Shown one piece after another: positions 7,646-52,845 of a stretch of 64,000 nt of DNA; the first letter of the stretch is position 1; each line of letters begins with the position of its first letter. The position numbers and the translations under genes are program-made. Source of the DNA: Klebsiella phage KPP2018; the sequence record NC_110934.1; one strand, given 5' to 3'. Below the pieces are notes generated by a model, which worked only from the letters and a program-made list of their open reading frames with translations, made no database searches and had not been told where the DNA came from.

Positions 7646-9464
7646 GACACTAAAATTTAGTAACGTTATGTCTTACGGTAAGGACATCGTAATTCATTTC
7701 GATAAGAATCCAGTTACTCAACTGATTGGTGGCAATGGGCTGGGGAAATCCACCATCGCTACTGTTATTGAAGAACTCTTCTATAATAAGAACTCACGTG
7801 GTATTAAGAAGGATGCTCTGTTCTCTTGGTCTTCTCCGAAAAAAGAGTATGATATGCACGCTTACTTCTCGAAAGATGAAGATGAGTACGAACTGCATAA
7901 AGTAGTTAAGTCAACTGCTAAAGTAACTCTTATTAAGAATGGAGAAGATATTAGTGGACACACGGCAACCCAAACATACAAGATGATTGAAGAGATTATG
8001 GGAGGTGACTTCCAAACGTTCACCAAACTAATCTATCAATCAGTGGGTTCAAATCTAGACTTTCTAAAAGCAACAGATGCGACACGTAAGGCTTTTCTTG
8101 TTAACTTGTTCAATCAAGAACAGTACAAAGAAATGTCGGAAACTATTAAGGCTGACCGTAAAGAAATAGCAAATACCTTAAATAATTTGCAGGGCCAAAT
8201 GGCTGTAATTACTAAAATCCTTAATGGAAAGAATAATCTGGGAACTTTGCAGGAACCTGTAGAAGTGCCTGAGTTTGATGAAGAACCATTAGCACAAGAA
8301 CTTACTGAATCGAAAATTAAGGCGGCATTAGCCAAGTCTCAAGAGGCTAATATTACTAAATTGCGTAATTTGGACAAAGCTGTACAAGTTGCCGAACAAT
8401 CTTTCGAGCCTTTCAAAAATTTGCCTGCGCCCACTGACCAAAACGAAGAGATCTCAAGTGTTACGCGTGACCTAACGATTGTGACCTCACGTGCGGGCGA
8501 AGTTAAGAAACGTTATCAGAAGTTCAAGCAAGAGGCTTCAAATACTGAATGTCCTACTTGTGGTACTCATCTGGATACAACTGCTGCTCAAAAAGCAATG
8601 GATATGGCTAGAACAGAATATGATCCTCTGTTCAAAGAGAAGCAATCTCTTGAAACCAAGCTAGAACAGCTGAAGAAAGAACAACTTGGGTACACTACGT
8701 ATATTAGAGCAAAGGATGCTTTGGATAAAGCAGTAGCAGCTAGAGACGAGTTCAAAAATTCAATGAGTGATGCTTCTTTTGAAGAACTCAATGTGCAAAA
8801 CCTACAGGTGCAAATCCGACAATTAGAACAGGAAATCGCTGATGGCCGTTCTAAGGTTGCAATTGCCAAAGAGCATAATGCAAATGTCGAATTAGCCAAT
8901 GCAAAATATAAAGCGAAACTAGAACAGATTGAGAAAGCTGAGGCAGAAATGTCTGAGATTACTTCCAAACTGGATGAGGTATCAGAAGCTGTTGCTGATC
9001 TCGATATTCTGATCGCTGCATTAAAGAATCTGGTAGGATATAAGCTAGAGCATAGTGTGAAAGTATTTGAAGAGCTTATCAATAAATACCTTTCCATTAT
9101 GACTGGTGGTAAGTTCGCACTTGGATTTGAACTTGATGAAACAAAATTACAAGTAGTAATCTTCAATGATGGAAATCGTACCAGTATGGAGAACTGCTCT
9201 ACTGGTCAACAAAGTCGAATCAACCTAGCAACTCTGTTAGCTATTCGAATGCTACTAACATCTATTAGTAAAGTTAATATTAATTTACTATTCCTTGATG
9301 AAGTAATTAGCTTTATTGATACTAAAGGACTTGATACTCTCGTTGAACTATTAAATGAGGAAGAAAGTCTAAATTCTATCATTGTTTCTCATGGGCATAC
9401 GCATCCATTGGCTCATAAGATTACTGTCAAAAAAGATGCAGAAGGATTTTCCTACTTAGAATAA
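7626..9464 (+). CDS. SbcC/Rad50-like ATPase (T5 D13-like)
   Basis: Chosen ATG at 7626 (MSKITIKTLKF...) overlaps the end of the upstream nuclease gene; the tracked 7545 start lies deep inside that gene. Walker A GGNGLGKST, long coiled coils, CPTCG zinc hook, signature STGQQSRINLA, Walker B LLFLDEV. Confidence 0.8.
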   Translation: MSKITIKTLKFSNVMSYGKDIVIHFDKNPVTQLIGGNGLGKSTIATVIEELFYNKNSRGIKKDALFSWSSPKKEYDMHAYFSKDEDEYELHKVVKSTAKVTLIKNGEDISGHTATQTYKMIEEIMGGDFQTFTKLIYQSVGSNLDFLKATDATRKAFLVNLFNQEQYKEMSETIKADRKEIANTLNNLQGQMAVITKILNGKNNLGTLQEPVEVPEFDEEPLAQELTESKIKAALAKSQEANITKLRNLDKAVQVAEQSFEPFKNLPAPTDQNEEISSVTRDLTIVTSRAGEVKKRYQKFKQEASNTECPTCGTHLDTTAAQKAMDMARTEYDPLFKEKQSLETKLEQLKKEQLGYTTYIRAKDALDKAVAARDEFKNSMSDASFEELNVQNLQVQIRQLEQEIADGRSKVAIAKEHNANVELANAKYKAKLEQIEKAEAEMSEITSKLDEVSEAVADLDILIAALKNLVGYKLEHSVKVFEELINKYLSIMTGGKFALGFELDETKLQVVIFNDGNRTSMENCSTGQQSRINLATLLAIRMLLTSISKVNINLLFLDEVISFIDTKGLDTLVELLNEEESLNSIIVSHGHTHPLAHKITVKKDAEGFSYLE

Positions 9465-9467
9465 AAC

Positions 9468-9950
9468 ATGGCCGTAGATAGTAGAGAGAAAGGTAAACGT
9501 GGTGAGTATCAGGTAAGAGATATTTTACGTGAACGTACAGGTCTTGAGTGGGAACGTGTCCCTGGCTCTGGTGCTTTTGGCCAGAGCCACGGACTGAAAG
9601 GTGACATCTACCTTCCACCACAAAGCGGACACATTAGTAAATACTGCTTCGAAGTTAAGTGGTATAAAGATGATAATATATCAAGTAATTTATTTAATGT
9701 TGGTGAATCCACTCTAGAGAAGTGGTGGCAGCAGTGCTCACGTGAAGGGGAGCAAATGAACTCCAAACCTGCATTAATATTCAAAAAAGACAGAGGACAG
9801 TGGTTAATAGCTTTGGATAGCTCAGACCCGATGGTTGACAACTTAATGAGTCGTACCCATATGGTGTTAAATAAGAAAGACATGGAAATCGTAATTGGTT
9901 TATTTGAGCCGTGGCTACATCATGCATCTGTTGAGGACTTAATTAAATAA
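9468..9950 (+). CDS. Holliday-junction resolvase-like PD-(D/E)xK nuclease (Hjc-like)
   Basis: KGKRGEYQVRDILRERTGLEWERVPGSG...GDIYL...FEVK resembles the Hjc G-x-ERE...SG...D...E-x-K pattern. Located after the SbcCD pair. Confidence 0.5.
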   Translation: MAVDSREKGKRGEYQVRDILRERTGLEWERVPGSGAFGQSHGLKGDIYLPPQSGHISKYCFEVKWYKDDNISSNLFNVGESTLEKWWQQCSREGEQMNSKPALIFKKDRGQWLIALDSSDPMVDNLMSRTHMVLNKKDMEIVIGLFEPWLHHASVEDLIK

Positions 9951-10825
9951 TGAGTAAATCCTGGGGAAAATTTATTGAAGAAGAGGAAGCTGAAATGGCT
10001 TCCCGTCGTAACCTAATGATTGTCGATGGAACTAACTTAGGCTTTCGCTTCAAGCATAACAATAGTAAAAAACCATTTGCCTCAAGTTATGTTTCCACTA
10101 TTCAATCTCTTGCAAAATCTTATTCTGCTAGAACTACAATAGTTTTAGGGGATAAAGGGAAGTCTGCATTCCGCTTAGAGCATCTCCCCGAGTATAAAGG
10201 GAATCGAGATGAGAAATACTCGCAGCGTACGGAAGAGGAGAAAGCGTTAGATGAACAATTCTTCGAATATCTGAGGGATGCTTTCGAGTTGTGTGAGACT
10301 ACATTCCCAACTTTCACTATTCGTGGTGTAGAAGCAGATGATATGGCGGCTTATATTGTTAAACTCATTGGACATCTGTATGATCACGTTTGGTTGATTT
10401 CTACTGATGGTGACTGGGATACTTTATTAACTGATAAAGTTTCTCGATTCTCTTTCACAACACGTCGTGAATACCATCTTCGTGATATGTATGAGCATCA
10501 TAATGTTGATGATGTAGAGCAGTTTATCTCTCTGAAAGCAATTATGGGTGATTTAGGGGATAATATCCGTGGTGTCGAGGGTATTGGGGCAAAACGCGGG
10601 TATAATATTATTCGTGAATTTGGTAATGTTCTGGATATTATTGATCAGCTTCCCTTGCCTGGAAAACAGAAATATATACAGAACTTAAATGCTTCGGAGG
10701 AATTGCTTTACCGAAACCTAATTCTGGTTGATTTACCAACCTACTGTGTGGATGCTATTGCTGCTGTAGGTCAAGATGTATTAGATAAATTTACAAAAGA
10801 TATTTTGGAGATTGCAGAACAATGA
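9950..10825 (+). CDS. flap endonuclease / 5'-3' exonuclease (T5 D15-like, 291 aa)
   Basis: Length equals T5 exonuclease (291 aa). Acidic metal-binding clusters (IVDGTNL, GDKGKS, EADD, TDGDWD). H3TH-like GIGAKRG. Confidence 0.85.
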   Translation: MSKSWGKFIEEEEAEMASRRNLMIVDGTNLGFRFKHNNSKKPFASSYVSTIQSLAKSYSARTTIVLGDKGKSAFRLEHLPEYKGNRDEKYSQRTEEEKALDEQFFEYLRDAFELCETTFPTFTIRGVEADDMAAYIVKLIGHLYDHVWLISTDGDWDTLLTDKVSRFSFTTRREYHLRDMYEHHNVDDVEQFISLKAIMGDLGDNIRGVEGIGAKRGYNIIREFGNVLDIIDQLPLPGKQKYIQNLNASEELLYRNLILVDLPTYCVDAIAAVGQDVLDKFTKDILEIAEQ

Positions 10826-37106: not shown

Positions 37107-37588
37107 TACTTCTTACCTCCAGTAGCTAGGGAAGTAATTAAGTCCATGTAGTTTTGATCCCCGGCTCCAGCAATAATATTATTCTGGATGTTGGTCTGGT
37201 TAGCGGGAGTACGGGCTGCTGCCTTCACTTTCTCCAATTCTACCATCATTTTCATTTCTTCCATCTTCATCTTGTGTGCCTTCCAGAGAATATCCATAAT
37301 ATCCTGGTCAGAACCCATGCCAGTTTCTTCCAATTCCTCTAGTTTACGTTTAATAACTTCATCTAGAACACCAAACAAACGATCTCTGTTACGGAAACCA
37401 CTTTCCATAAAAATATCATTTAAGTAGTTCTTAACTTCACTACGATTCATAATATCTCGGAAAGCAATTTCTGACATCCCAAGACTACGTGCGGCAGAAG
37501 GCACATCACTGCCACACTGTAAATAAGCTTCAATCACATCCATCCCTTCAGGGGACATAAGATCTGGTACTAATACATCATTTGCCAT
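37106..37588 (-). CDS. putative terminase small subunit / DNA-binding protein
   Basis: 160 aa, immediately upstream of and translationally coupled to the large terminase. HTH-like N-terminus. Confidence 0.45.
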
Positions 37589-40149: not shown

Positions 40150-40395
40150 ATGTTTAGTATTGTAATTGCTTTTATTATCGGGATACTCGCGGGAGTTTTC
40201 GGGACAACTGCGGCAATCAATAAGCATCGGGAATATATTGCGGGAGTGACGCGGGAGATTGCGGAAAGGGAGAGGAAGTTTGACGAGAAACGTGCGGAGT
40301 TTGAGCGGGAGTGGTCGGATGGATCTCGGGCGTCGCGGAAGAGATTCCGTGAGTTTAGACCAGAACACAGGTTTGATGACCCTTCTATGCGCTAA
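40150..40395 (+). CDS. membrane-anchored protein (81 aa), GC-rich
   Basis: N-terminal TM helix (FSIVIAFIIGILAGVFGTTAAI) then a charged Arg/Glu-rich helix. Marks the start of the GC-richer block. Confidence 0.45.
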   Translation: MFSIVIAFIIGILAGVFGTTAAINKHREYIAGVTREIAERERKFDEKRAEFEREWSDGSRASRKRFREFRPEHRFDDPSMR

Positions 40396-40546
40396 TTTGA
40401 CTTTTGCCAAATTTCATAAGATTACACATGGAGGTGTGTCCAGTGGCCCCCCAGATGAGAATGAGTCTCATTACCGCCCGGTACTTAGCAAGCTAATAGT
40501 CACGGCATGTTATCATTGCACACCGTGACTATTTCAATTTTAATTA

Positions 40547-41323
40547 TTACGCAACTTTTAATTTCTCGATATATTGTTGCGGGCTGCAACTATATTCCGC
40601 GCGTTCTTCCTCGGTCATACTTTCCCAACATAATTTCAAACGATCAACTAGGAACTGATAATCATTATCATCATCGAGAGATTCATCAATAAAGGTTTCA
40701 CCTATCAATGCCACGCCGATTGATAGAATATCGTTAATAGCTTGCGCGTCCAGCGTTTTAAATCCGTATGATGCCGCCGCTGATAGCACGCCTTTATGAT
40801 CATCAATCATTGTGAAATCAGCGTTCGGATATAGCTGTTTAAATAATTCAAAATAATAACTTTTATATACTGCGTCCTTACTGTGGTATATTTCGCTAAC
40901 TTTATCAGCTTCAAAATATTTATGCAGCGTGTCACGGGAAAACACGCGGATATTACTATCCCCACGCCCTCGTAAGCCTTGTTTGCGCAAATAATAATAA
41001 TCCGACTTGCTCATTAGTCGAGCGGTACAAATAATGTTTAAAGTATTTGCATCATTCATACATTGGCGCATATATTCAACTAATGGTAATAAAGTATCTT
41101 GCATAATTAAATCATGCTTACACGCTTCATTTTTATATTTATTTAAATTTAAATTCCCGTCGCTATCAAAGCAAGGTGCTACACGATGGAACGAATTAAC
41201 GATAGTGCCATCCAGATCCCAAATCATGACGCGGGAAATATGCGGGAAATTACGGGTAATATTCGTTTTAACTTGATTCATTTTGTTACGTTCTCCATTA
41301 AAGGGATTTAGTTTATCCAGCAT
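40547..41323 (-). CDS. dmp: HAD-family 5'-deoxyribonucleotidase (T5 Dmp-like)
   Basis: HAD motif I MIWDLDGTIV. Size about 29 kDa. Location in the pre-early block next to A1-like. Confidence 0.7.
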   Translation of the reverse strand: MLDKLNPFNGERNKMNQVKTNITRNFPHISRVMIWDLDGTIVNSFHRVAPCFDSDGNLNLNKYKNEACKHDLIMQDTLLPLVEYMRQCMNDANTLNIICTARLMSKSDYYYLRKQGLRGRGDSNIRVFSRDTLHKYFEADKVSEIYHSKDAVYKSYYFELFKQLYPNADFTMIDDHKGVLSAAASYGFKTLDAQAINDILSIGVALIGETFIDESLDDDNDYQFLVDRLKLCWESMTEEERAEYSCSPQQYIEKLKVA

Positions 41324-41361
41324 TACCCGCTATTTATAAGCGGGTAATAATAAATCAACTA

Positions 41362-41754
41362 TTAAAGACCATAAGCCAACGCATCAGCGATGAAGCTAAT
41401 ATCTTCGCCGGATACATGAGAATGAACACCCGCGCAGATATATACCTTTGCGCTCGATAGCTGATCATCAAAGCAAGCTGGACAAGGCGCGACAACTGCA
41501 AAGGCTAGACCGGATTTTACGGCGTCGATGATAATCGTTTCCTGCTTCACCGTATCAACATAAACGCCTGCGGCCTTGATGTGACTACTTGCGCGGCCTT
41601 GCGTATAGGCGAAAGTAGTGATCTGTAGCGCCTCGTTAAACTCGATTAAATCATCAACAACGTGACCGGCCTCGACGTGGTAGCGTTCGCCATTAGAATA
41701 AACTAGAACAATGGAAGATTGAGCGCGATCGAATGGGATATTTTGCTTTTTCAT
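41362..41754 (-). CDS. hypothetical pre-early protein; weak resemblance to CDA-fold zinc deaminases
   Basis: 130 aa. Contains HVE ... 63 aa ... PCPAC, reminiscent of H/C-x-E ... PCxxC zinc ligands, but spacing is longer than canonical. RBS ATTAATTGGAGTTATAAACATG. Confidence 0.5.
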   Translation of the reverse strand: MKKQNIPFDRAQSSIVLVYSNGERYHVEAGHVVDDLIEFNEALQITTFAYTQGRASSHIKAAGVYVDTVKQETIIIDAVKSGLAFAVVAPCPACFDDQLSSAKVYICAGVHSHVSGEDISFIADALAYGL

Positions 41755-41819
41755 GTTTATAACTCCAATTAATTTAATAAGGGGTATAAGCGGGGTATAT
41801 ACCCCGCTTATAAATTTAA

Positions 41820-43484
41820 TTATGCGAAAAATTTGCCGTTTTTAAAGTCAATCAAAGTGCGCTGGCCGTTTGCATATGTAATTAAATGCGTTTGCGTCCA
41901 GCTTGACGCGCCAACGTTGTAGCCCATATCGAGGGAACCAGCGACGCCAGCGGTATAAACGCCGCCGTATATGCTGGCGGTGTGAGTGTGCCCCGTGTTT
42001 AACTTGCCCAATTTCTTAAATTGCTTCGGATTGCCACGGCTGCCGTTAATGCCGTTGTGACCGTGTACGCCGCACTCAATGCCTGCAATCTTGAAAGATT
42101 GGTCAGTGGTCAGGAATATGGCGTTAAACTCGCAACCTGCAACCGTACGCAGCGCATAATCTAGCACGTTGAAAGTATCGTCATGATCACCGATTGCCGC
42201 GTAAATTGCAGCATTCAGGCGGTGATATAGTTCCGCGTTGGCGGGGTCGTCTTTGATGTTAGCATTACGATCATCAAGCCAACGGGATAGCGCCAAATCG
42301 TGATTCGATTCGACAATGATCGTTTGACTAAAATCGCGCTCCATTGACTCCAGCACGCGCCCGGTATCGATGAGATCATCCAGAACTTTATCACGTCCGG
42401 CGGCATACTGTTTTGCTAGGAATACACCGGATGCACGGTTATGATGATTGCGCGATGTAAAATCGTGAACGTCATGGATAAACTGATATTTTGGTTTAAG
42501 AATATCAAGCAAGCTATTTTCGCCAGCCCATGACGCAGCGGCGCAATCATCATCCAATTTTTCCGCATGAATATCGCCATACTGCAAGCCTAAAACATGC
42601 CCCGACGTTTCAAAGCATCCGGCGGGGGTCGCGCAAATATTCAAATCGTAAAACATGCCGCTTTCATCCATCGTTTCAAGCTGGCGAACAAAAAATTCAC
42701 CGTCTTCGTCGAACTCGACAATAAGCGCACCGTAATTATGCAGCGCTTCGGCTTTTTGCCCTGCTTTTTGCTGAATGTAGTTTTTGAGTGTTGCCGTTCC
42801 GGTTGAATACATGCGGCGCACTACTTCACCTTTGAGAGCTGGGACACTTTCGGCGGTAATTTTAGCGTGACCAATTGCCAGACCTTCAATATTTAAAGCC
42901 GTTGCAGTTTCTGCGAATCCAGAAAGCGGATAATCTGCCGTTGGCAAAACATTAATTTCAGCCATGAAAGCAAAACGGCGATTATTTAAAAACACGTTTT
43001 TGCTGCAAATATATTTATCAAACGCGGAATCATATTTTACACCGTCAGCGCCTTCACCATTCTGGAAGCCGTTTTTATTATAAATATACTTAGAAACAAG
43101 CAAATCAGCGCCGATAAATTTAGCATATTGTTCAAGCGAGGCTAAAAAGTTTTTATGCGGGAAAGTATTATTCTGAATCGATGTAATAATAAAGCGTTTA
43201 CCTTGTTTGACTTCCCACTGTTCCACGGTACTAGAAACAATCCCAGCCGCTTCGGGGCGCTCGTCGTTTTTAATAGCTTTTACAGCTTTCGCCGTTTTTG
43301 GTTTCGCTGGTTTATTTGCTTCCAACCAATCGCAAATTGCTGTCGAGTGTTTTGCAGTATCGTAAACCGCTTTCGAAATATCGTCGCATACTTCCAGTTT
43401 AGTGGCGCGCAGACGTTTACCGTAGAAATTAAAGTCAGCGGCTAGTTTCATGATAGCGGTTTGTTTTTCTGCGGAAATAATCAT
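41820..43484 (-). CDS. A1: A1-like pre-early protein (metallophosphoesterase-type nuclease, 554 aa)
   Basis: Calcineurin-like motifs GDIHAEKLDDD, GNHD-like NHD..., GHTHTASI. Size near T5 A1 (556 aa, as I recall). Start moved to ATG at 43484 (MIISAEKQ...) with RBS TAATGGAGTTTATTATTATG; the tracked 584-aa start lacks an RBS. Confidence 0.7.
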   Translation of the reverse strand: MIISAEKQTAIMKLAADFNFYGKRLRATKLEVCDDISKAVYDTAKHSTAICDWLEANKPAKPKTAKAVKAIKNDERPEAAGIVSSTVEQWEVKQGKRFIITSIQNNTFPHKNFLASLEQYAKFIGADLLVSKYIYNKNGFQNGEGADGVKYDSAFDKYICSKNVFLNNRRFAFMAEINVLPTADYPLSGFAETATALNIEGLAIGHAKITAESVPALKGEVVRRMYSTGTATLKNYIQQKAGQKAEALHNYGALIVEFDEDGEFFVRQLETMDESGMFYDLNICATPAGCFETSGHVLGLQYGDIHAEKLDDDCAAASWAGENSLLDILKPKYQFIHDVHDFTSRNHHNRASGVFLAKQYAAGRDKVLDDLIDTGRVLESMERDFSQTIIVESNHDLALSRWLDDRNANIKDDPANAELYHRLNAAIYAAIGDHDDTFNVLDYALRTVAGCEFNAIFLTTDQSFKIAGIECGVHGHNGINGSRGNPKQFKKLGKLNTGHTHTASIYGGVYTAGVAGSLDMGYNVGASSWTQTHLITYANGQRTLIDFKNGKFFA

Positions 43485-43573
43485 AATAATAAACTCCATT
43501 AAAGGGATAAGGTTAATAACGGCAATATTGCCAAATATAACGCCTCGAATAATAGGCGTTATAATTTGCAACA

Positions 43574-43819
43574 TTAATTTAAAGGCATAAGGCTAGAACT
43601 AACACCACAAACAACGGCGGCAATAAAACAAATCAGACCTAAACGCTTCGCCAATCTAGATTTACGTTTAAAATAATACGAATCTAAATCATTTTGAAAA
43701 TATGCGAACAATAACGAGGCCGCCATAATAAATAGTCCTAGAATCAATGATTCAGTAGGGTAAAAGATCATTTTAAAAACTCCAGTTAAAGGGAAATTAT
43801 AGTGGGGAATAATCCCCAC
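43574..43819 (-). CDS. small membrane protein (81 aa)
   Basis: Two predicted TM helices. RBS ACTGGAGTTTTTAAAATG. Confidence 0.5.
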   Translation of the reverse strand: MGIIPHYNFPLTGVFKMIFYPTESLILGLFIMAASLLFAYFQNDLDSYYFKRKSRLAKRLGLICFIAAVVCGVSSSLMPLN

Positions 43820-43828
43820 TATTTAAAT

Positions 43829-44235
43829 TTATTCACCTGCGGCCTGTTTTACTTCATCGGCAACGCCTAACAGCTGCGCCACGGCGTCCAGCGTTTCCAG
43901 TTTCGCGCTTTCAAGGCTTGCCAGATCATCAGCGTCTTTGATAATGCCGGAATCAATAGCGTGTTTTGCAATTACGCGCACATAGTGAGCTTTACGGATT
44001 GAGCTACCGCCGCCAACTTTGCGCGGCTTATCGCTCTTCTGATAGGCTTTTGCGCTGGTCAATTTTGAGCGAACGGATACGGGGAGGCCGCACCAACTGC
44101 TTTCGCAATCTCTTTTAAACCGTCGCTATTTGCAAAATCTAAACCGTTTTCATTGATTAACTGCTGGTACATGGTAACAGCTTTCTGGGTGTTTTCTTCA
44201 TTCCAGGTGAATTTTGCGGTTTTTGCGTTAGTCAT
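43829..44235 (-). CDS. split A2-sized pre-early gene (58-aa N-terminal ORF 44059-44235 and 77-aa C-terminal ORF 43829-44062 in -1 frame)
   Basis: Upstream part has strong RBS TTGGAGTTTATATCATG and stops at 44059-61. Downstream part is open from 44197 in the -1 frame. U UUA AAA heptamer at 44114-44120 lies in the overlap. Fused product about 127 aa. Confidence 0.4.
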
Positions 44236-44332
44236 GATATAAACTCCAATTAATTTAATTTAAGGGATTAGATTAACTAATGTTAATCGTTATATTCCCC
44301 ATATTTCAGGGGAATATAAAGTTAACACTAAT

Positions 44333-44584
44333 TTATAATACAGCTTCCCATTTTTCGTTGCGTTGAACAACCTTTACAACGTCGCCGGATTTAACGCGAA
44401 CGTTATAAATCGGCTTGCCGTTGTTACTGCGTTCTGTTTCAGCGTATACCGCATCGATTGTATCGAACGGCATAAGCGCCGCGCCTTTAATACGTTCGGC
44501 TTTTCCGGTTAACTCATCCGTTTTAGTAACGAAAGGAATAAAAACGGATTGACCAATTTTCGGCGCATTAGTAACGTTTTTCAT
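44333..44584 (-). CDS. hypothetical pre-early protein (83 aa)
   Basis: RBS ACTGGAGTTTATACCATG of the same family as the other pre-early genes. Confidence 0.5.
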   Translation of the reverse strand: MKNVTNAPKIGQSVFIPFVTKTDELTGKAERIKGAALMPFDTIDAVYAETERSNNGKPIYNVRVKSGDVVKVVQRNEKWEAVL

Positions 44585-44813
44585 GGTATAAACTCCAGTT
44601 TATTCAGTGGATTGTTTCGCATTACCTGCTAAAAAGTATCAGGTAATAAGAAAAAATCCGCTCGCCATTATAAAATCAATTTAAAGAACTCCACGAAGGC
44701 CGCTATATCCCGTTAGGGGGCGGGGCACATTATGGTAAGTGCCGACCGTCAAATTGTATCAAGTTATCGCTCTTGTCGAACTGGGTACATCTTAAAGCCT
44801 ATCGGCTGGGGTG

Positions 44814-45014
44814 TCAAACAGTTTTTTGCGATTTTTTATAATTTTCCTTCAGGTCAATCATAATATTTCGCCAGACCATTTCCAGACCTTGCTGGCGGCC
44901 TTTCTTGTATTGCTTAAATCGGTATTTTACCGATCTTTGCGCTACTGTCAACAAATTTTTTGTTCTGCTGTCCAGTGCCTTGCTAGGTTTACCAGTGATT
45001 AAAAGCGTTTGCAT
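44814..45014 (-). CDS. small basic protein (66 aa), possible DNA-binding
   Basis: Lys/Arg-rich. TAATG-coupled to the upstream 52-aa ORF. Confidence 0.35.
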   Translation of the reverse strand: MQTLLITGKPSKALDSRTKNLLTVAQRSVKYRFKQYKKGRQQGLEMVWRNIMIDLKENYKKSQKTV

Positions 45015-45172
45015 TATTTGAGATCCTCCAAAGCGTATAAACCTTTGCCATCATTGCAGATTATTACTGCTTCTGAATGATTGGCATAGTATTCGTTTGC
45101 ATTCTTTACCCATTGCTCGATCTTTTCGATCGTGTCGTGGGTAGCTGGATGATCGTTATATATTGTTGTCAT
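45014..45172 (-). CDS. small hypothetical protein (52 aa)
   Basis: ATG at 45172 with RBS AAGGAATCGACGATATG. Below the ORF-track cutoff. Confidence 0.3.
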   Translation of the reverse strand: MTTIYNDHPATHDTIEKIEQWVKNANEYYANHSEAVIICNDGKGLYALEDLK

Positions 45173-45862
45173 ATCGTCGATTCCTTATAATGTAATAAGT
45201 TTACCGCCGATAGGCTTTAAGATATACCCAATTTTTAAAGAGCGCGGCGGTAAACTTCCCGCCGTGTAGTTCGTCATTGCCGCCCTACGAGATAAATAAT
45301 AACAAACAACGAAAAAGGCGCAACCTTATTTTTGTAAAGAAATGTAAAGACAAACGCCACCGGACACCGTGCGGCGACCTGGGCGCAGCGCGTTAAAATT
45401 AAAAGAAACGGGCGCGCGAATACCACAAAACATAGCAGATAAGCAAGTAATTTTTTCATTTATATTTGCTTTGCCCTACTTGACAAAATCTAAAAAGCTC
45501 ATGGCAGCGATAAACGGCTTATCCCCTTATGATGGGATGGCTAAAAACTTTATTGCGTTCTAGGGCGTTTTAGGCGCATTCTAGCCTTGTTGATAACTTA
45601 TCCCCAGAAGCAAAAATGAAATTTTCCTAGTTATCCACTTGACTTTTATTTTCCAGTGGATAACTACTTATTTTATAAAATAAATTAATTGACTTTTATT
45701 TGTTAGTATGCATCGGAAAGATAGCAGACTATTAATCACTAGGATGATGGTCATGCTGGTGGATTGTAACGGCCTGAATTATTAGCAGACTATTAATCAC
45801 AGAAAAACTCATTAGCCAACTAACTATTTCATGATATATAATATACTTATAAATTAATGAGA

Positions 45863-45945
45863 AATAATAACTATAAGAAATCATCACCAGTATAATAACA
45901 ACTATAAGAAATCATCACCACTATAATAATAACTATAAGAAACTA
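45863..45945. repeat. tandem direct repeat, about 27-bp unit x3 (TAATAACAACTATAAGAAATCATCACC)
   Basis: Three consecutive near-identical copies visible in sequence. Confidence 0.8.
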
Positions 45946-45954
45946 TCGGCCTAA

Positions 45955-46084
45955 GTGAGAACCACTATCATTTAAGTTATCCACAACGTTATCCACAGCA
46001 CAAAATAATTTGACACGATAGGCGGCGATATGAGGGCTTTTACACAGATTTATCCACAGGTTATCCTACTGTATAAATATACAG
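45955..46084. repeat. left arm of about 130-bp imperfect inverted repeat; 3 perfect DnaA boxes
   Basis: TTATCCACA at 45977-85, 45989-97 and 46050-58. Inner end carries the near-palindrome CTGTATAAATATACAG. About 75% identical to the reverse complement of 49725-49855. Confidence 0.75.
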
Positions 46085-46350
46085 GGTAAAAAGGCAGTGT
46101 TAACAACTGCAATCAATTTTAAGCGGCCTGAAACGCTTTCTAACGAGCTAAACGATGCGGGGCAATATTAAAGTAAAGACCCAACACGTCGCCCTGGTGG
46201 CTTCATCGTGTTTTGCTCTTTATTACACCGCTGCGCGGTTATCATAAAAATAGGCGTTAGGCAAGAAAAATAAAAAAGTAAAATAATCTTTGCCTATGCT
46301 AGAAAATTACCTTTATCATTCACTCACCGATTAACGAGGGAGGCCAACAA

Positions 46351-47328
46351 ATGCGGCTATATAAACCAGATAACGCAACCGTCTTAAAAGGTGCGCTGCG
46401 TAACCTGCTGGACGGTAGCAGAACAACCAGCATTAAGCACTTTGTTAACAAGGCCGAAGATATTCACCAAAATTTTTTTGATGATTTCGACGCCTATGAT
46501 ATGAGTAGTTTTTTGCAACTATATAAGCAAGGGGCAACCATTGTATTATATAATCGGGATAATCACCTGCTTACTAGTAGGGGTCCGGATACCGATTTCA
46601 TAATCGTAAAAGGTAGTATAGTAAAAGCCTATGATACTGGGGCGGGCTTAGAAGTTTTTTCAATAGAAAACTATGAAGCCAACCCCAATGATCTTTATGA
46701 TGTAGAAAATTTTCTCGATTCATTTTGGCGTTATTTATCAGTTGGCTGGAATCGGTCGGATTCTGATGGGTATCGTTTTGCGGCTGTAATGGCGTTTGAT
46801 GATGATGGCAATTTTTTGCTACCGTCGGAAATATACCCCTACGTATATGATGGGGATATAGAAAGCGCGGGCTTTTCTTTCTGGAAGGAGAAAGATCAGC
46901 CCATTGACAACACGGAAAAACATACTGTAAATTCTAGCACTCAAACTACTGAAAACAAAGGAAAAAATGCCATGACCAAGATCGCTAATATCGTTGCCGC
47001 CAATAAGTCTGCCGTTGTAAATGCTGCAAAATTGGAAGCGGGTAAAATTGCACTGACTCAAATTACGAAAGTAGTGGCTAAAAAAGCACCGTTCATGATC
47101 AAAGGCTATATTGATACGCCGATTGGTCGGGTAGTGATCGCTAACCTGCTAAGTGTAGCGGTTGACCAGTACGCCCCGAGTAACCAGAAAGCGAAAGCGG
47201 TAGCAAGCGCGGCAATGGAAGCGGCAATGTTAGAAATGGTGCAAAGTTTTAACATCGCTGAGATGATCGATGAAATGGTAAAAGGTATCGATATTTCTAC
47301 TTTTACCAATAACACCGAAAACGAGTAA
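46351..47328 (+). CDS. hypothetical protein (325 aa), first gene of IR-flanked cassette
   Basis: RBS GAGGGAGG before the ATG. No motif recognised. C-terminal half is Ala/Lys-rich and helical. Confidence 0.5.
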   Translation: MRLYKPDNATVLKGALRNLLDGSRTTSIKHFVNKAEDIHQNFFDDFDAYDMSSFLQLYKQGATIVLYNRDNHLLTSRGPDTDFIIVKGSIVKAYDTGAGLEVFSIENYEANPNDLYDVENFLDSFWRYLSVGWNRSDSDGYRFAAVMAFDDDGNFLLPSEIYPYVYDGDIESAGFSFWKEKDQPIDNTEKHTVNSSTQTTENKGKNAMTKIANIVAANKSAVVNAAKLEAGKIALTQITKVVAKKAPFMIKGYIDTPIGRVVIANLLSVAVDQYAPSNQKAKAVASAAMEAAMLEMVQSFNIAEMIDEMVKGIDISTFTNNTENE

Positions 47329-47393
47329 TAATAACTAGCGGGGATTGTTACCCCGCTTTACTATTCCCTTGATAATTAATAGGAGGCTAATTA

Positions 47394-47888
47394 ATGGCTG
47401 AAGAAAAATATGGCTTCTCACTGGGAGAAGTGAGCACGGCAAAACATGATATGATCATTTTAGTCGATTGTCATACTGGCTATTGCGGGGAAGGGAATAC
47501 CGAGGAATATTTTGTTCCTGCGGGTACGGATCTGGACGCTCTCGCTCATGAAATGGCTATTGATAATGCTTCTCGTTTCGGTAGCGATGGCTATGAAGAC
47601 GAGGAAACTGGCGAATGGTATGAAAATGAAAACGTATATGCAAGCCTTTATCATTATCAATTAAGTAAATCCGGCACATATGTAAACGGCGGTGATCCTA
47701 TTAATTCCGTCATGAAATTAATTATTAAACACGGTGGCGTCGAGATAATTGATAACAAAGCGGTAATATATGCAAACCGATTAAAACAGCTTGTTTATAT
47801 CCCTGATAGTACCCGATGGGATGAATACGCCGTTTTGCATGACGAATTGAAACGATGTTTCAATGTTGAATCCTTACAAGTAGTTTAA
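47394..47888 (+). CDS. hypothetical acidic protein (164 aa)
   Basis: RBS TAGGAGG before the ATG. Glu/Asp-rich. Confidence 0.5.
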   Translation: MAEEKYGFSLGEVSTAKHDMIILVDCHTGYCGEGNTEEYFVPAGTDLDALAHEMAIDNASRFGSDGYEDEETGEWYENENVYASLYHYQLSKSGTYVNGGDPINSVMKLIIKHGGVEIIDNKAVIYANRLKQLVYIPDSTRWDEYAVLHDELKRCFNVESLQVV

Positions 47889-47961
47889 TGTAAAGTTTTG
47901 TAAAGGTCGCCTTTTATGGTGGCCTTTTTTGCTATAATGCCTTTACACCGTTTGAGGACGG

Positions 47962-48225
47962 TTGAAAATTTTCCCAAAAATTTGGAGGCTTAAAATGGTT
48001 GCATATTCTTCTTCTGACGCTCTTTTCACTGGAAAAGGCTGGGTATCTAATCGCTGGATTATTCAAGAAATGGTGCAAGAATACGGCATTGCTAAAACTT
48101 ACACTACCATTCAGGCGCTTTATGATAATGATCAAATCGATCAGCAAACGGCGGGCTTTTTGCTGGACACGCTGAAAGCGGAACACTGCACTAAAAAGCA
48201 AGCGGCAAAAATTATTTTAATGTAA
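47962..48225 (+). CDS. hypothetical protein (87 aa)
   Basis: Preceded by -10-like TGCTATAAT at 47928-47936. RBS TGGAGG. Confidence 0.45.
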   Translation: MKIFPKIWRLKMVAYSSSDALFTGKGWVSNRWIIQEMVQEYGIAKTYTTIQALYDNDQIDQQTAGFLLDTLKAEHCTKKQAAKIILM

Positions 48226-48274
48226 TTAATAAAGGGGCGAAAGTAACGCCCCACTAACTAGGGGAGTATTACAA

Positions 48275-48424
48275 ATGATTATTTTTCGAGCTATTCTGGC
48301 GGGTATCTTGGGCGCTATTTTATCTTTGTTTGCAATAGCTTTCGATGTTCACGCGGTTATTATCGGCGCGGGTATCGCTGCATTTTCTTATCTGCTGGGC
48401 TGCATGACTAGTAAAGGAGAATAA
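48275..48424 (+). CDS. small membrane protein (49 aa)
   Basis: MIIFRAILAGILGAILSLFAIAFDVHAVIIGAGIAAFSYLLGCMTSKGE: two TM segments. RBS GGGGAG. Confidence 0.35.
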   Translation: MIIFRAILAGILGAILSLFAIAFDVHAVIIGAGIAAFSYLLGCMTSKGE

Positions 48425-48426
48425 AA

Positions 48427-48639
48427 ATGATCCGCAACGTTTCTCTTGCACGTTCGAAAGGCTTTAAGCTGGTGGATGCTAACACGTTCGAGCGGGAAGA
48501 TTGTAAAATCGAATATGTAGCACGTAACAAAAATGCCTTTCGTGTTACTGAGAAAAAATTTGATAAGCGCGGCAACGTGATCGCTGAAACGGTTAAGCAC
48601 TTTGCCACCTTTTACGCTGCGTTTCGTGGGGTACTATGA
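48427..48639 (+). CDS. hypothetical protein (70 aa)
   Basis: RBS AAAGGAGAATAAAAATG. Basic. Confidence 0.45.
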   Translation: MIRNVSLARSKGFKLVDANTFEREDCKIEYVARNKNAFRVTEKKFDKRGNVIAETVKHFATFYAAFRGVL

Positions 48640-48776
48640 AAAGCGTTATCGTTATTGCCCTTGCAATGGTTGGCGGTTTTACCGCCACCTTATTCAAAAA
48701 TGACCCCATTTCATTGGGGATCTTTATGTTATTATCTGGCTATCTAATTGGGAGGTTGTCAAATGGTTATTTATGA
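48636..48776 (+). CDS. small membrane protein (46 aa)
   Basis: MKSVIVIALAMVGGFTATLF...: TM peptide. ATGA-coupled. Confidence 0.3.
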   Translation: MKSVIVIALAMVGGFTATLFKNDPISLGIFMLLSGYLIGRLSNGYL

Positions 48777-49107
48777 GGGCAATCGTTTTGTTGCTAATTG
48801 CCGTCCTGCATTATTAGCAAACTACTTAAATCAGCTTTCCCCAGCTTATAAGGGTGTTATTAATATTTATGAGGGCAAGGCGCATTATAAAATCAATGCG
48901 GTCGTTGCCCGTGAACTAGCATTTCAATTTTTGACCTTTGCATCTTGTGATATTCAGGTCATGGGGGAAGCATTAATTGCAGAAAATGAAGATGATTTTA
49001 TTAATATTTTCCGCAAGATATGCACCGAGCGGCTGATAATGAAAGGCGCGTATATTCAATCCACGGCTGATAGTATTGAAACAGCGTTTCGAAAGGTGGC
49101 GCAATGA
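48763..49107 (+). CDS. hypothetical protein (114 aa)
   Basis: ATG at 48763 preceded by GGGAGG. The tracked 48748 start lacks an RBS. Confidence 0.45.
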   Translation: MVIYEGNRFVANCRPALLANYLNQLSPAYKGVINIYEGKAHYKINAVVARELAFQFLTFASCDIQVMGEALIAENEDDFINIFRKICTERLIMKGAYIQSTADSIETAFRKVAQ

Positions 49108-49262
49108 AAAAGTTTTTAATAGCTGGCATGTTTCCGTTGTTGCCTTATGTAATTTGCTGGGCTTTATACGCTCATGGCGCTAGTGTTCCCGCTGTGGCTT
49201 CATTTGGTGTATCGGCGGGCTTTCTAGCTGGACTATTAGCAAGCGTATACTTACGCAAATAA
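49104..49262 (+). CDS. small membrane protein (52 aa)
   Basis: MKKFLIAGMFPLLPYVICWALYAHGASVPAVASFGVSAGFLAGLLASVYLRK. ATGA-coupled. Confidence 0.3.
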   Translation: MKKFLIAGMFPLLPYVICWALYAHGASVPAVASFGVSAGFLAGLLASVYLRK

Positions 49263-49281
49263 TTAATAATGGGGCGTTATT

Positions 49282-49476
49282 ATGAGCAATAAAATTGTTG
49301 TAACCAAAATCAGTACAATGGTTGATGTTTTTTACGTGCCCGATACGCCGGAAAACCGACAAGCGGTCGAGCGTGGAGAATATGATAAAGTGATTTATGA
49401 TCACGATGGTTATTATCAGCATTTAGTGGATTCCTACGGGGAGGAGGAGAAGATCACGCATCGACTACCAGACTAA
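49282..49476 (+). CDS. hypothetical protein (64 aa)
   Basis: Last ORF of the + strand cassette. Confidence 0.4.
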   Translation: MSNKIVVTKISTMVDVFYVPDTPENRQAVERGEYDKVIYDHDGYYQHLVDSYGEEEKITHRLPD

Positions 49477-49724
49477 TAATCACGGGGCGCAACTATCAGG
49501 AAGTGCCCCCAATTCTCAAATGAGAATGATTCTCATTTGACCGCGCCCGCGATGGTTAGCCTGCTAATGGTTAGGGTGTTACGTGTCGCCTTGTGTGATC
49601 GTTAGCGTGCTAACTAATTTTCAAGCCTCCTTCAATTTTGCCCTTGTTTTAGTATCCCCAACAAAATTAAACGCGTTAGAATGCGTTTGAGAGCGTTTTA
49701 ACGCTATATTAGAATTATTCACTG

Positions 49725-49855
49725 CGTAGGAATACTGTATATTTATACAGTAGGATAAGCTGTGGATAAGTCTGTTGATAACGCTTCAAAACGGCTAGAA
49801 TTTTGTCAAGTCAAATCGTGCTGTTAGTAAGTCTGTGGATAACTTAAATAACAGT
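49725..49855. repeat. right arm of inverted repeat; DnaA boxes in opposite orientation
   Basis: TGTGGATAA at 49751-59 and 49824-32. One-mismatch box TGTTGATAA at 49763-71. Inner-end palindrome CTGTATATTTATACAG at 49725-40. Confidence 0.75.
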
Positions 49856-49861
49856 GTTTCT

Positions 49862-50035
49862 CACTTCCGTTCTTAAATGAGAATCATTATCATTTGCATT
49901 TCACTATCTAACTAATAATCATTCCGCTTTTTAAATGAGAATCATTCCGCTTTTTAAATGAGATTGATTCTCATTCCGCTTTTTAAATGCGAATTATTAT
50001 CATTCTCATTCCGCTTTTTAAATGAGAATGATTCT
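49862..50035. repeat. tandem array (5 copies) of about 24-bp unit TTCCGCTTTTTAAATGAGAATCAT
   Basis: Copies begin near 49862, 49922, 49944, 49970 and 50007. The unit contains the half-site AAATGAGAAT of the palindromes at 49519-49541 and 40448-40466. Confidence 0.8.
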
Positions 50036-50053
50036 TATTATCATTCGTATTTA

Positions 50054-50080
50054 GCGCAGGGCAATTGCCCTGCGCTTTTG
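50054..50080 (+). terminator. perfect-palindrome hairpin terminator (GCGCAGGGC-AATT-GCCCTGCGC + TTTTG)
   Basis: 9-bp GC-rich perfect stem, 4-nt loop, T-run on the + strand. Confidence 0.7.
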
Positions 50081-50690
50081 TGCAAATCCGACATTGCTCC
50101 ACGGGTGTTACGTGCGGGCGTGTATGTGCGAATCCGACAATCTTTGGTAGTGTGCAAATCCGACCCGAAAAATTTTTATAGTGTGCAAATCCGACAATGA
50201 ATTTTCCCAAAAACTCCAGCAATCTCGAACTGCGTTCGAATCCTGTGGGGTATGTGCAAATTCGACACGGTTTTTCTAGGATTAAGATGTGCAAATCCGA
50301 CAAGATTTTTGTGACTTCGATTGGAGGGTGTGTGATTGTGTGGGTTTGGGGAGAAGATGAGAGAGCGAGAGAAAATAAGGGAAGAAACTGGAGGAGCAGC
50401 ATGGGTGGCGTGTAACGCCTGATTTGCTGCGTTTTTGGGGAAGAGTTGAGAAGATTTGGGTTAATTGGGCTTGGGGCGAGATAAAGTAAAATTTTATTAG
50501 CAAAATGGGGCAAAATAGCTTGACAAGTGAAAATTCCTGTGGCTCAGGTGCTGCGTACTTTGATACATGGCAGTGGTTTAACCTTAGCAATAATGCTGCT
50601 ATTTTCAGGAGATTATATGTGCCTAAAAACTTAGGCATTTGTGCAAATCCGACCATAAATTTCTAGAAACACAATGTGCAAATCCGACAG
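50080..50690. repeat. iteron array: 8 direct copies of GTGCAAATCCGAC(A)
   Basis: Copies at 50080, 50126 (GTGCGAATCCGACA), 50152, 50183, 50254 (GTGCAAATTCGACA), 50289, 50641 and 50677. All in the same orientation. Confidence 0.85.
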
Positions 50691-50715
50691 TAATTTCTGG
50701 AAATGTGTTTTCAAA

Positions 50716-50885
50716 AAATGTCTCCTAGAAATAACCGCCCTCCCTATAACCGCCCTGTATTAAACCGCCTAGTATATGTTCCTAGAAACTTAGGAGAACC
50801 GCCCACTAGAAGCGTGATATCTCGTGGGTATTTCGTGAGAACTCTGGAGTTTCTAGGAAAGTGTATGTGATCCTAGAGATGGGGA
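50716..50885. repeat. cluster of short repeated motifs: AACCGCC(C) x4 and palindromic TTCTAGAAA-like x6
   Basis: AACCGCCC at 50733, 50748, 50764 and 50797. YYCTAGRAA variants at about 50660, 50688, 50716, 50779, 50850 and 50870. Confidence 0.6.
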
Positions 50886-51146
50886 GCGGCAACAGGTGTA
50901 TCATCTTGAACACAGATATTGCCTTTAAATATATTCGTATGTTTTAAAAGTAAATGATCCCCCATTTCATGTGAGATTCCTCGTGGGGCGCGTGAGTATT
51001 ACGGAAGAACTCTAATATTGGCCCGCGCTAAGACTAGCCGCTATAGCACAGACGCAAATAGAGTTGTAATAATCATCGCCCCTAGAGTTCACAATAAGAG
51101 TTATTGTTAATCTATGAGATTATTATAACATACATTTTTAATAACG

Positions 51147-51902
51147 TCAAGAAGATTTTGCTAACGTTTTTGGATTCTTCCTGGCTTTGAGATATATCCC
51201 TTTAGATGCTAGGTAAATATATGTTGCTAGGAATGAAGATTCTGATCCCGATTCCTCATAGGTTAACGTACCTCTAGGGTATTTATTTGTTTTAGGAGCA
51301 TAGTTAAGCACAGCCGCAGTTAATGATCCTAATCCTAGAACATCCGCAAGACGTCTAAAGGTATTCTCTTCATCATGAATAGCATAAAGAATGTTATCTT
51401 CAATATCCGTTAATGGAATCTTACGGATATGAGATACTGCAATCCGTGCTATCATAGCTCCAATTGTTTTATTAATATCCTCGAAAGAAACACTCTCCAT
51501 ATATTTTAGAGGGGGAAGATGGTCATATTTACATTTCTTAGGCGGAATAAGAAGTTGTTCAGGGTAAGCCTCTAGTGCCTGACGAACGTTTGCTTCTGGA
51601 TATGTTGGCAAAGGTTCATCTATAATAACATGTAAAAAGTTAGCTCTATGCCCTTTAGCAGTTGGATCTAAAGACTTGAGTACTTTATTCATATCCACAT
51701 ATGAATATGCTAGGTCTGCTTGAGGAGCATTAATATCAAACTTAATCTTCTTGCCCTCCCATTTAGCAGGGAACATCTCACAAACAAACATTACTGCATG
51801 TTTGACGTCTGGCTCTAGCTCTGATAGACATTTGTGATCTGCTGTTACTGCTAAAGCGAGTATATTCTTAAATTTATTAGCTTCTTCAATCATATATCCC
51901 AT
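51147..51902 (-). CDS. hypothetical early protein (251 aa)
   Basis: First - strand ORF after the repeat region. No motif. Confidence 0.5.
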   Translation of the reverse strand: MGYMIEEANKFKNILALAVTADHKCLSELEPDVKHAVMFVCEMFPAKWEGKKIKFDINAPQADLAYSYVDMNKVLKSLDPTAKGHRANFLHVIIDEPLPTYPEANVRQALEAYPEQLLIPPKKCKYDHLPPLKYMESVSFEDINKTIGAMIARIAVSHIRKIPLTDIEDNILYAIHDEENTFRRLADVLGLGSLTAAVLNYAPKTNKYPRGTLTYEESGSESSFLATYIYLASKGIYLKARKNPKTLAKSS

Positions 51903-52231
51903 GCCTGCTGACTAGTATCACTAACTTGTGTCTTTTTCTCTCTTCGTGGTTTAAAAGTTCCTGTAGTATTACTTTTACTAGGTTCTAATTTATACCACAG
52001 CATTCCTAGCTGGTTAACCATATGAGCAACATTTCTAGGGGTCAATGGAGGTAGGGATTCACAGTTTGATATCTCTATTAATATATTAAATAATTCTGTC
52101 TCTTTAGCCTTACTGTTTACTACCACCACGTATTCTAATGTCTCTACCTCAGAATCCTCGTCTTTATAGTAAAGGCTAAGAGTAATTAAATTTTCCCCAG
52201 CAGGAGTTATTTTTGTTTTACCAAATATCAT
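51890..52231 (-). CDS. hypothetical early protein (113 aa)
   Basis: Coupled overlap with neighbours. Confidence 0.45.
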   Translation of the reverse strand: MIFGKTKITPAGENLITLSLYYKDEDSEVETLEYVVVVNSKAKETELFNILIEISNCESLPPLTPRNVAHMVNQLGMLWYKLEPSKSNTTGTFKPRREKKTQVSDTSQQAWDI

Positions 52232-52845
52232 TAATTACCTCTCTTATCTTCATTAAGCGCAGCTCCCAACGCCTCCATAATAGCATCTTCTAAACTTCCA
52301 TGTTTACTAGGATCATTAAAATGAATAGCATAAACAGAACTCCTAGAAACTCCAGCATCCGCAGGTGCTACGCTTCGCATATCAGATTCAAAAGCTTCTT
52401 GAGTATGCTTTAACTGTACAGAAGGGCCGTAATCTTCACCAAACTTGTATGACTGCGTACTACTTATCACACCCCCACAAGGAACATTGTGCATATCCGA
52501 CATTAATCTTTTATCGGAGTTATTCAGCATTGCGATTGGCCCTGACTGCCACGGATCTCGAATAGTTACTGGAGTACTGGGGCGGTTCACTTCAGCCTTC
52601 ACAAGTTTGTACCCTGCATCGATTAATGCGTTAATTAGATTATCAGCTGGGATGCGAGCCTTGCCAAAAATCTTACGAGCATCTTCGAGCTTATCCTCAA
52701 GATCTTTACATGCTCTAAGGTCAGTGTGTGCAAATGTTAGCTTCATAGATTTAAATTGTACAGTAGCAGTTAAATCTTTAAAGCTATAATCCCATGTGTT
52801 CAGTTCATGATCCGGTACTACTTGAATAGGTTGTTGTGCAAACAT
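52231..52845 (-). CDS. hypothetical early protein (204 aa)
   Basis: ORF with coupled stop/start. Confidence 0.5.
   Translation of the reverse strand: MFAQQPIQVVPDHELNTWDYSFKDLTATVQFKSMKLTFAHTDLRACKDLEDKLEDARKIFGKARIPADNLINALIDAGYKLVKAEVNRPSTPVTIRDPWQSGPIAMLNNSDKRLMSDMHNVPCGGVISSTQSYKFGEDYGPSVQLKHTQEAFESDMRSVAPADAGVSRSSVYAIHFNDPSKHGSLEDAIMEALGAALNEDKRGN

Follow-up and report, generated by a model that had tools for sequence, protein, structure and literature searches.

The injection-stop-signal (iss) region of bacteriophage T5, also known as Repeat Region 3 of the LTR, is reportedly treated in a literature that includes Heusterspreute 1987, Wang 2005 and Davison 2015. In the T5 annotation (AY543070), iss covers 9140–10149, the LTR ends at 10219, and a major single-chain interruption of the minus strand lies at 9748/9749; iss itself has been mapped only to this interval of about 1 kb. 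Repeat Region 3 has been described as an ordered series in which IRD'/IRC' with DnaA boxes is followed by DRC 1–4, palindromes up to palI/palJ, nine DRD and DRA, and the order of these elements is conserved among T5-like phages (Davison 2020, 10.1101/866236).

The window analysed here is a stretch of 64,000 nt from Klebsiella phage KPP2018 (NC_110934.1), which on homology grounds is T5-like and belongs to a Tequintavirus/Epseptimavirus-like phage. In a sequence search, positions 49400–51400 matched 454 phage records, nearly all of them from Salmonella and Escherichia T5-like phages, and the best match was Salmonella phage Th1 (Th1 8452–10400, 94% identity). Judged by homology, the locus 49862–50700 is the counterpart of T5 Repeat Region 3, the iss region. 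As in T5, it is non-coding and occupies the right end of the terminal repeat (TR), between the last pre-early and the first early gene; the two operons are convergent, with the plus-strand pre-early ORFs on the left, small ones among them at about 48.2–49.5 kb, ending at 49476 and the minus-strand early ORFs on the right beginning at 51147. The order of the named elements is the same in the two phages (IRD'-spacer-IRC' with DnaA boxes, DRC, the palindrome at the nick, DRD and the TR end), and the repeated 13-mer is identical. They differ in the number of DRD copies, eight in the window and nine in T5, and in the tails of the DRC units, and their identity is about 69% over 1.6 kb with gaps counted. 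From copy number and order, we infer that the 13-mer is DRD and that the tandem unit is DRC. Since these elements match features annotated in T5 or named by Davison, the finding is a rediscovery of a named region; the region and its repeats were already known, and the repeats are real and deeply conserved. The original prediction had placed the locus in the T5 injection-stop neighbourhood, in agreement with the T5 annotation and with Davison (2020); that its repeats already bear names in the T5 literature (DRC, palI/palJ and DRD) had gone unremarked. It had also found no credible ORFs, and this holds: the long stop-free stretches of the pyrimidine-rich minus strand were rejected as genes because their frame and extent vary among 11 phages, and no conserved ORF was found in the locus.

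The upstream part of the block begins with the IRD'-spacer-IRC' arm (49720–49866), the inverted-repeat partner of 45953–46099; the two arms are 147 nt long and 74% complementary, and the right one has a mean column conservation of 0.94. DnaA boxes (TGTGGATAA) lie in the right arm at 49761 and 49834. A near-consensus LexA SOS box (TACTGTATATTTATACAGTA, 19/20) is also present in this arm at 49733–49752, with a 17/20 copy in the left arm at 46067–46086; these are the only two LexA boxes in the 64 kb, and their core is conserved in Vibrio phage Gary (459–475 and 529–545 of locus L018). The DRC array follows on the plus strand (49865–50046). Its four clean TTCCGCTTTTTAAATGAG copies start at 49922, 49945, 49974 and 50009, with spacings of 23, 29 and 35 nt, and a degenerate fifth copy with a 1-nt deletion lies 57 nt upstream, at about 49865; T5 has the same units. 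The five 24-bp tandem copies described earlier are thus a real array, in which one copy is degenerate and the period is not constant. After every DRC copy comes a palindrome of the GAGAAT-N-ATTCTC type, whose length varies, and the block is AT-rich (28% GC). Fur-box-like sequences (at least 14/19 to GATAATGATAATCATTATC) occur at 11 places between 40457 and 50042, the best being 17/19 at 40657; all those of the window lie inside the terminal repeat, many of them are the DRC palindromes, and the shuffled window contains about 6.5 such matches in total.

In all, the block with the inverted repeats has DnaA boxes (six consensus copies), two LexA boxes and Fur-like boxes, and this bears on an extension of Davison's DnaA model in which the DRDs, like these boxes, would be bound by a host protein that is present beforehand and retains the DNA as it enters. 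It has been reported that the injection stop requires no new protein synthesis (Davison 2020, 10.1101/866236), the Fur-like boxes of the window are confined to the terminal repeat, and such host proteins are common to hosts from Escherichia to Vibrio, all of which would suit this extension. However, the 3' half of the DRD motif varies between subfamilies, as true host boxes do not, and a host protein is in our view an unlikely reader of the DRDs. To our knowledge, the DRD motif does not match the consensus of any known host factor.

To the right of the DRC array lies the perfect 22-nt palindrome GCGCAGGGCAATTGCCCTGCGC (50054–50075), which has the arms GCGCAGGGC-AATT-GCCCTGCGC, a fold dG of −14.4 kcal/mol (z = −4.5) and TTTT directly after it. 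Its homologue in T5 is the site of the major (7.9%) nick, and the annotated T5 nick coincides with the right edge of the homologous palindrome. At this edge the minus strand reads AA/GCGCA, which corresponds to the annotated consensus NPu^pGCGCN, and the predicted minus-strand nick, 50075/50076, falls at the position that is homologous to the 7.9% nick. The downstream half of a bipartite nick signature, GTTACGTGCG (50107–50116, plus strand), follows with one mismatch. This signature was derived from the four annotated major nick sites of T5 (9745, 22333, 39743 and 78570), which share CCYGCGC before the cut, about 30 nt, and RTTACRNRTG; on the plus strand, GCGC-N26–33-TTACRNRTG finds exactly these four sites in 71 kb of T5, with one extra match on the other strand. 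In the window the bipartite signature occurs at 8427, 63126 and 50072. A nick-type signature (GCGC ... ATTACACATG) is also found at 40389–40429, 44 nt before the inferred left genome end, and likewise in Spc35, which suggests that the nicking enzyme is possibly linked to terminus formation. Similarly, a second copy of GGGTGTTACGTG lies at 49574, about 31 nt past ACCGCGC (49542–49548), and 49542–49585 may constitute an extra, minor site of nicking, with the main one lying 530 bp to its right.

The palindrome had originally been described as a perfect palindromic terminator. Its perfection is confirmed; the hairpin is followed by only four T rather than the five or more of a rho-independent terminator, a rho-independent terminator scan did not call it, and it coincides with the 7.9% nick of T5. 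The corresponding reading of the whole locus is that the palindrome terminates the pre-early operon and that the repeats are simply neutral debris left between convergent genes; in its favour, a GC-rich perfect hairpin with TTTT does lie on the plus strand downstream of the last pre-early ORF, and the operons on the two sides are convergent. Apart from the short T-run, however, the T5 annotation puts the terminator further upstream and a nick at this hairpin (AY543070), the block exceeds the adjoining pre-early genes in conservation, and its motif is kept across subfamilies; we regard this reading as very improbable. An Rfam scan of 49000–51500 gave only one sub-threshold match, in which the palindrome scored 24 bits for Listeria rliI, whose gathering score is 45; it is treated as chance.

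The first DRD begins 4 nt to the right of the 7.9% nick and shear point. The 13-mer GTGCAAATCCGAC has eight copies in the locus, all on the plus strand, which start at 50080, 50126 (one mismatch), 50152, 50183, 50254 (one mismatch), 50289, 50641 and 50676, with start-to-start spacings of 46, 26, 31, 71, 35, 352 and 35 nt. DRD1–6, of the form (T)GTGCRAATCCGAC(A), are co-oriented within 222 bp (50080–50301) and lie 245–465 bp inside the right end of the TR; DRD7–8 (50641–50688) follow about 350 bp further downstream and stand outside the terminal repeat by +96 and +131. The motif scan thereby reproduced the eight same-orientation copies of the original prediction, six within 220 bp and two about 350 bp on, and their specificity to the locus largely holds as well: at up to two mismatches the whole 64 kb contains 11 matches against 0.7 expected, a number reached in none of 100 shuffles, and beyond the locus the motif recurs only at 52489, as a single copy, and at 8793/8808, as a tandem pair; relatives conserve both. 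The former (52489–52501, plus strand, one mismatch) is antisense within the homologue of the early gene T5.019; its T5 counterpart is an exact copy at 12154, and a single distal copy of this kind is present in nearly all related loci. The tandem pair (8793–8820, plus strand) lies inside the D13 (SbcC-like) gene, and it is very unlikely to have arisen by chance, but any function would be inseparable from coding constraint. In the complete genome of Kenya-K17 (106.7 kb), the non-locus copies are again only the one about 1.8 kb to the right and the tandem pair in D13, and T5 and the window share both sites, with every copy on the plus strand. The D13 pair (T5 78936–78963) is located about 365 bp to the right of the 64.8% nick and is kept in 28/28 close relatives; a crude match did not detect it in two distant relatives (46–47% identity). 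A role of DRD as part of a general nick signal was rejected, as the T5 nick sites at 18.5% and 32.6% have no DRD core nearby, and a likeness of DRD to the tRNA T-arm was judged a coincidence. Short direct-repeat arrays of unknown role, SRL/SRR, are also known inside the direct terminal repeat of T7 and T3; these differ from DRD in sequence, their terminal repeat is 160 bp long compared with 10 kb here, and they have no link to two-step injection.

Co-oriented direct repeats next to DnaA boxes and an AT-rich block are also the layout of the iteron plasmid origins of the pSC101, RK2 and P1 oriR type, and the locus might accordingly be read as an oriV-like replication origin, with DnaA boxes, the AT-rich DRC repeats (28% GC) and the DRDs as 'iterons', at which replication would be started by a phage protein, for instance the UL9-like helicase D2, which has been proposed as an initiator. 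A resemblance of the UL9 box (GTTCGCAC) to the reverse complement of the G-variant DRD was noted and set aside. In favour of an origin, T5 has a reported strand bias that is consistent with unidirectional replication from one end (PMC10055335), although rolling-circle replication would yield the same bias. Unlike the regular, helically phased iterons of 17–22 bp in such plasmids, however, the DRD motif is only about 14 bp long and its spacing is irregular (26–71 bp); the phage, besides, is lytic and has a replisome of its own. Neither a rep gene nor any other initiator was recognised among the three ORFs scanned beside the locus, those on its right at 51147–52845, which have no Pfam family and belong to PHROGs of unknown function; D2, for its part, lies about 50 kb from the locus in T5 and matches the herpes origin-binding family in its helicase part only. 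Moreover, older electron microscopy put the T5 origins internally (cited in Davison 2020, 10.1101/866236), and the replication genes enter only in the second step. An iteron-type origin is therefore considered improbable. Nor does a centromere fare better, as a ParB/parS system would have ParA and ParB genes nearby and a palindromic parS; the DRD motif is asymmetric, and a Pfam scan of five proteins (the three ORFs at 51147–52845, T5 A2 and the small-terminase (TerS) candidate) returned no family and hence no Rep, ParA or ParB. With the irregular spacing, the position of the array across the TR end and the satellite copies inside genes, the Rep- or ParB-type origin or centromere of the original prediction is left unsupported.

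Between DRD6 and the TR end lies a G/purine-rich tract on the plus strand (50302–50480; conservation 0.83), which is 65% purine, in keeping with the purine-rich tract noted previously, and contains 41% G compared with 19% in the window. It is followed by a conserved block (50481–50545; conservation 0.94) that runs to the inferred right end of the TR and closes with TTGACAAGTGAAAATTCCTGTGGCTC. By homology, the TR is assigned to 40437–50545, about 10.1 kb; its left end was set by homology to nucleotide 1 of T5 (TGTCCACTGCC...), and its right boundary, immediately after TTGACAAGTGAAAATTCYTGTGGCTC, is annotated alike in T5, MM-1, Sw2 (PhageTerm) and phiR2-01, which places the TR end at 50545. In the records of saus111K and chee158, the annotated end falls within the G-rich tract, about 210 nt to the left; we consider these two annotations less reliable, yet they are a caveat. 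The assembly holds one collapsed copy of the TR. Just past the TR end, the sequence of T5, MM-1, Sw2 and phiR2-01 is TAAAAACTCAGGCAA...GGGCCTTCGGCCC, in which a TTGACA −35-like hexamer precedes a UUCG-type hairpin (3221–3260 of the T5 locus L001), whereas the window lacks the T5 GGGCCTTCGGCCC hairpin at this place and has an unrelated 50-nt replacement (50546–50600). Further to the right, direct reading of the plus strand shows four copies of AACCGCC (50732, 50748, 50763 and 50798) together with CTAGAAA-type repeats at 50700–50880, and by comparison with the element list of Davison (2020) these are probably the DRA of T5. A strong sigma-70-type promoter match on the minus strand (51150–51122; TTGACG, 17 nt, TG-TATAAT; 11/12), located where the first early operon has its 3' end, is directed to the left, towards the non-coding block and antisense to the DRDs, and no ORF follows it.

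A search for the 13-mer in other T5-like genomes gave nine copies in T5 and 334 DRD-like motifs in 686 kb of IMG/VR sequence, which comprised 41 loci around A1 homologues and was searched on both strands; all of the latter have one orientation relative to A1 and none the opposite one, and the extended logo reads W-R-T-GTGCRAATCCGA-Y-A. In an alignment of 11 phages, the motif columns are more conserved than the spacers (0.96 vs 0.83; invariant columns 70% vs 39%; p = 3e-10, a value that overstates independence because the aligned sequences are related); similarly, the Markadamsvirinae loci are 75–94% identical in this block, and conservation among them is not independent evidence. The motif extends to distant Vibrio phages. 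Gary (Ermolyevavirinae; A1 31% identical) has copies of GTGCRAATYCGA, PVo5 has at least 12 copies of AGGTGCAAAAYCTA, and the identity of A1 is only about 31–33% in these two phages. The GTGCAAA half is family-wide and includes the Vibrio phages, in which the 3' half changes from CCGAC to YCTA; meanwhile, Gary keeps unchanged DnaA boxes and the palindrome CTGTATATTTATACAG near its motif copies. Outside Demerecviridae, in Shewanella phage 1/40, an A1 homologue is present, while an A2 homologue, the long non-coding block and the DRD cluster are absent. The higher conservation of the motif columns and their single orientation point in the direction of several sites for one specific protein, as originally suggested. 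Since the GTGCAAA half is kept, the 3' half is subfamily-specific and the host DnaA and LexA boxes are unchanged, the binder would be expected to be encoded by the phage rather than by the host. In such a scheme, the DRD 14-mers (T-GTGCRAATCCGA-Y) would be sites of one asymmetric sequence-specific protein, each bound singly, and this putative phage protein would build a co-oriented nucleoprotein array across the TR end. The DRD array fits sites of this kind, read by a protein that would act at the TR end.

In two phage subfamilies the DRD array straddles the right end of the TR. The T5-type phages have six copies inside the boundary and 2–3 outside, Gary has 6–7 inside and three outside, and a second Vibrio-type contig has eight copies inside the repeat end and at least two outside; where a contig terminates with the right repeat, as eight do, its end is 245–247 nt past the last DRD. 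Straddling holds although other elements have moved, and it is explained best by a recognition site of the small terminase (pac or cosB-like), which would adjoin the cut that makes the genome end and position it for the right end of the TR, with the six inner DRDs just inside. In this model packaging would start from the right end, as injection starts from the left, so that the direction of packaging is itself deduced. A TerS candidate (phrog_3802; 37124–37582) adjoins TerL, and our literature search found no paper describing a pac site of T5. The arrangement resembles lambda cosB, with its gpNu1 R sites, and other TerS sites in that several short protein sites lie beside a terminase cut, on the side of it that is expected to go into the capsid first. 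Unlike these, the DRDs, as putative sites, are all co-oriented, stand on both sides of the cut and are 245–465 bp away from it, and T5 has 10-kb direct repeats in place of the cohesive ends of lambda. Against the terminase, moreover, T5-like phages and Gary, which have the motif core in common, show poor conservation of the N-terminal HTH-like region in the TerS candidate; the left TR boundary lacks a DRD, the satellite copies are located within genes, and saus111K and chee158 annotate the TR end elsewhere. We hold this model to be possible but rather doubtful.

The reading that we tentatively put first, as a possibility and not as a probability, is that the pre-early protein A2 is the DRD binder and would control the restart of DNA transfer. 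The T5 annotation describes A2 as a DNA-binding protein needed together with A1 for second-step transfer; A2 belongs to a PHROG annotated 'DNA binding protein' and is present in every lineage with a DRD array. The A2 proteins of T5 and Gary are 42% identical overall, with VRSKLT and RKxHYVR kept. According to this proposal, about 8% of the genome would enter first and A1 and A2 would be made; A2 would then load onto DRD1–6 beside the entry pore, and next onto DRD7–8 and later copies as they emerge. This loading would either ratchet the DNA inward or target A1 to the DNA, and transfer would restart. The pause itself would come about without new protein and would be set by the upstream block, namely the inverted repeat with its DnaA and LexA boxes, the DRC palindromes and the nick. 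Against the role of A2 as the putative binder, this protein, as far as we know from older biochemistry, binds DNA with no reported sequence specificity. Moreover, if the DNA stops at about 9.6 kb, the DRDs would still be in the channel, beyond the reach of a cytoplasmic protein. The A2 model explains neither the straddling of the TR end in every lineage nor the satellite copies in D13 and the T5.019 homologue. PDB sequence searches with A2 and with the TerS candidate gave no match. In the window, the essential pre-early A2 gene (43829–44235, minus strand) is frameshifted near 44083 by a 1-nt deletion (T5 GGCTTCTCCCGTG, window GGCCTC-CCCGTA), which splits A2 into pieces of 58 and 77 aa; an error in the assembly is the probable cause, although a real defect is conceivable.

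The new observations are the orientation of the DRDs on one strand, the straddling of the TR end in two subfamilies, the retention of the GTGCAAA core in Vibrio phages and the conserved satellite copies in two genes. In a wider form, which we advance with little confidence, the straddling array would be a cis element of the two-step transfer of T5, or would couple transfer to terminus formation, and it would be read by one conserved Demerecviridae protein, either A2 or the small terminase, through a 14-bp code that extends from coliphages to Vibrio phages and has a subfamily-specific 3' half. How T5 stops and restarts the delivery of its genome is a question more than 50 years old, and iss has been mapped only to this block of about 1 kb; with one orientation, a conserved GTGCAAA core and an array that always spans the repeat end, the 'bewildering array of repeats' comes down to a few experiments on binding and mutagenesis.
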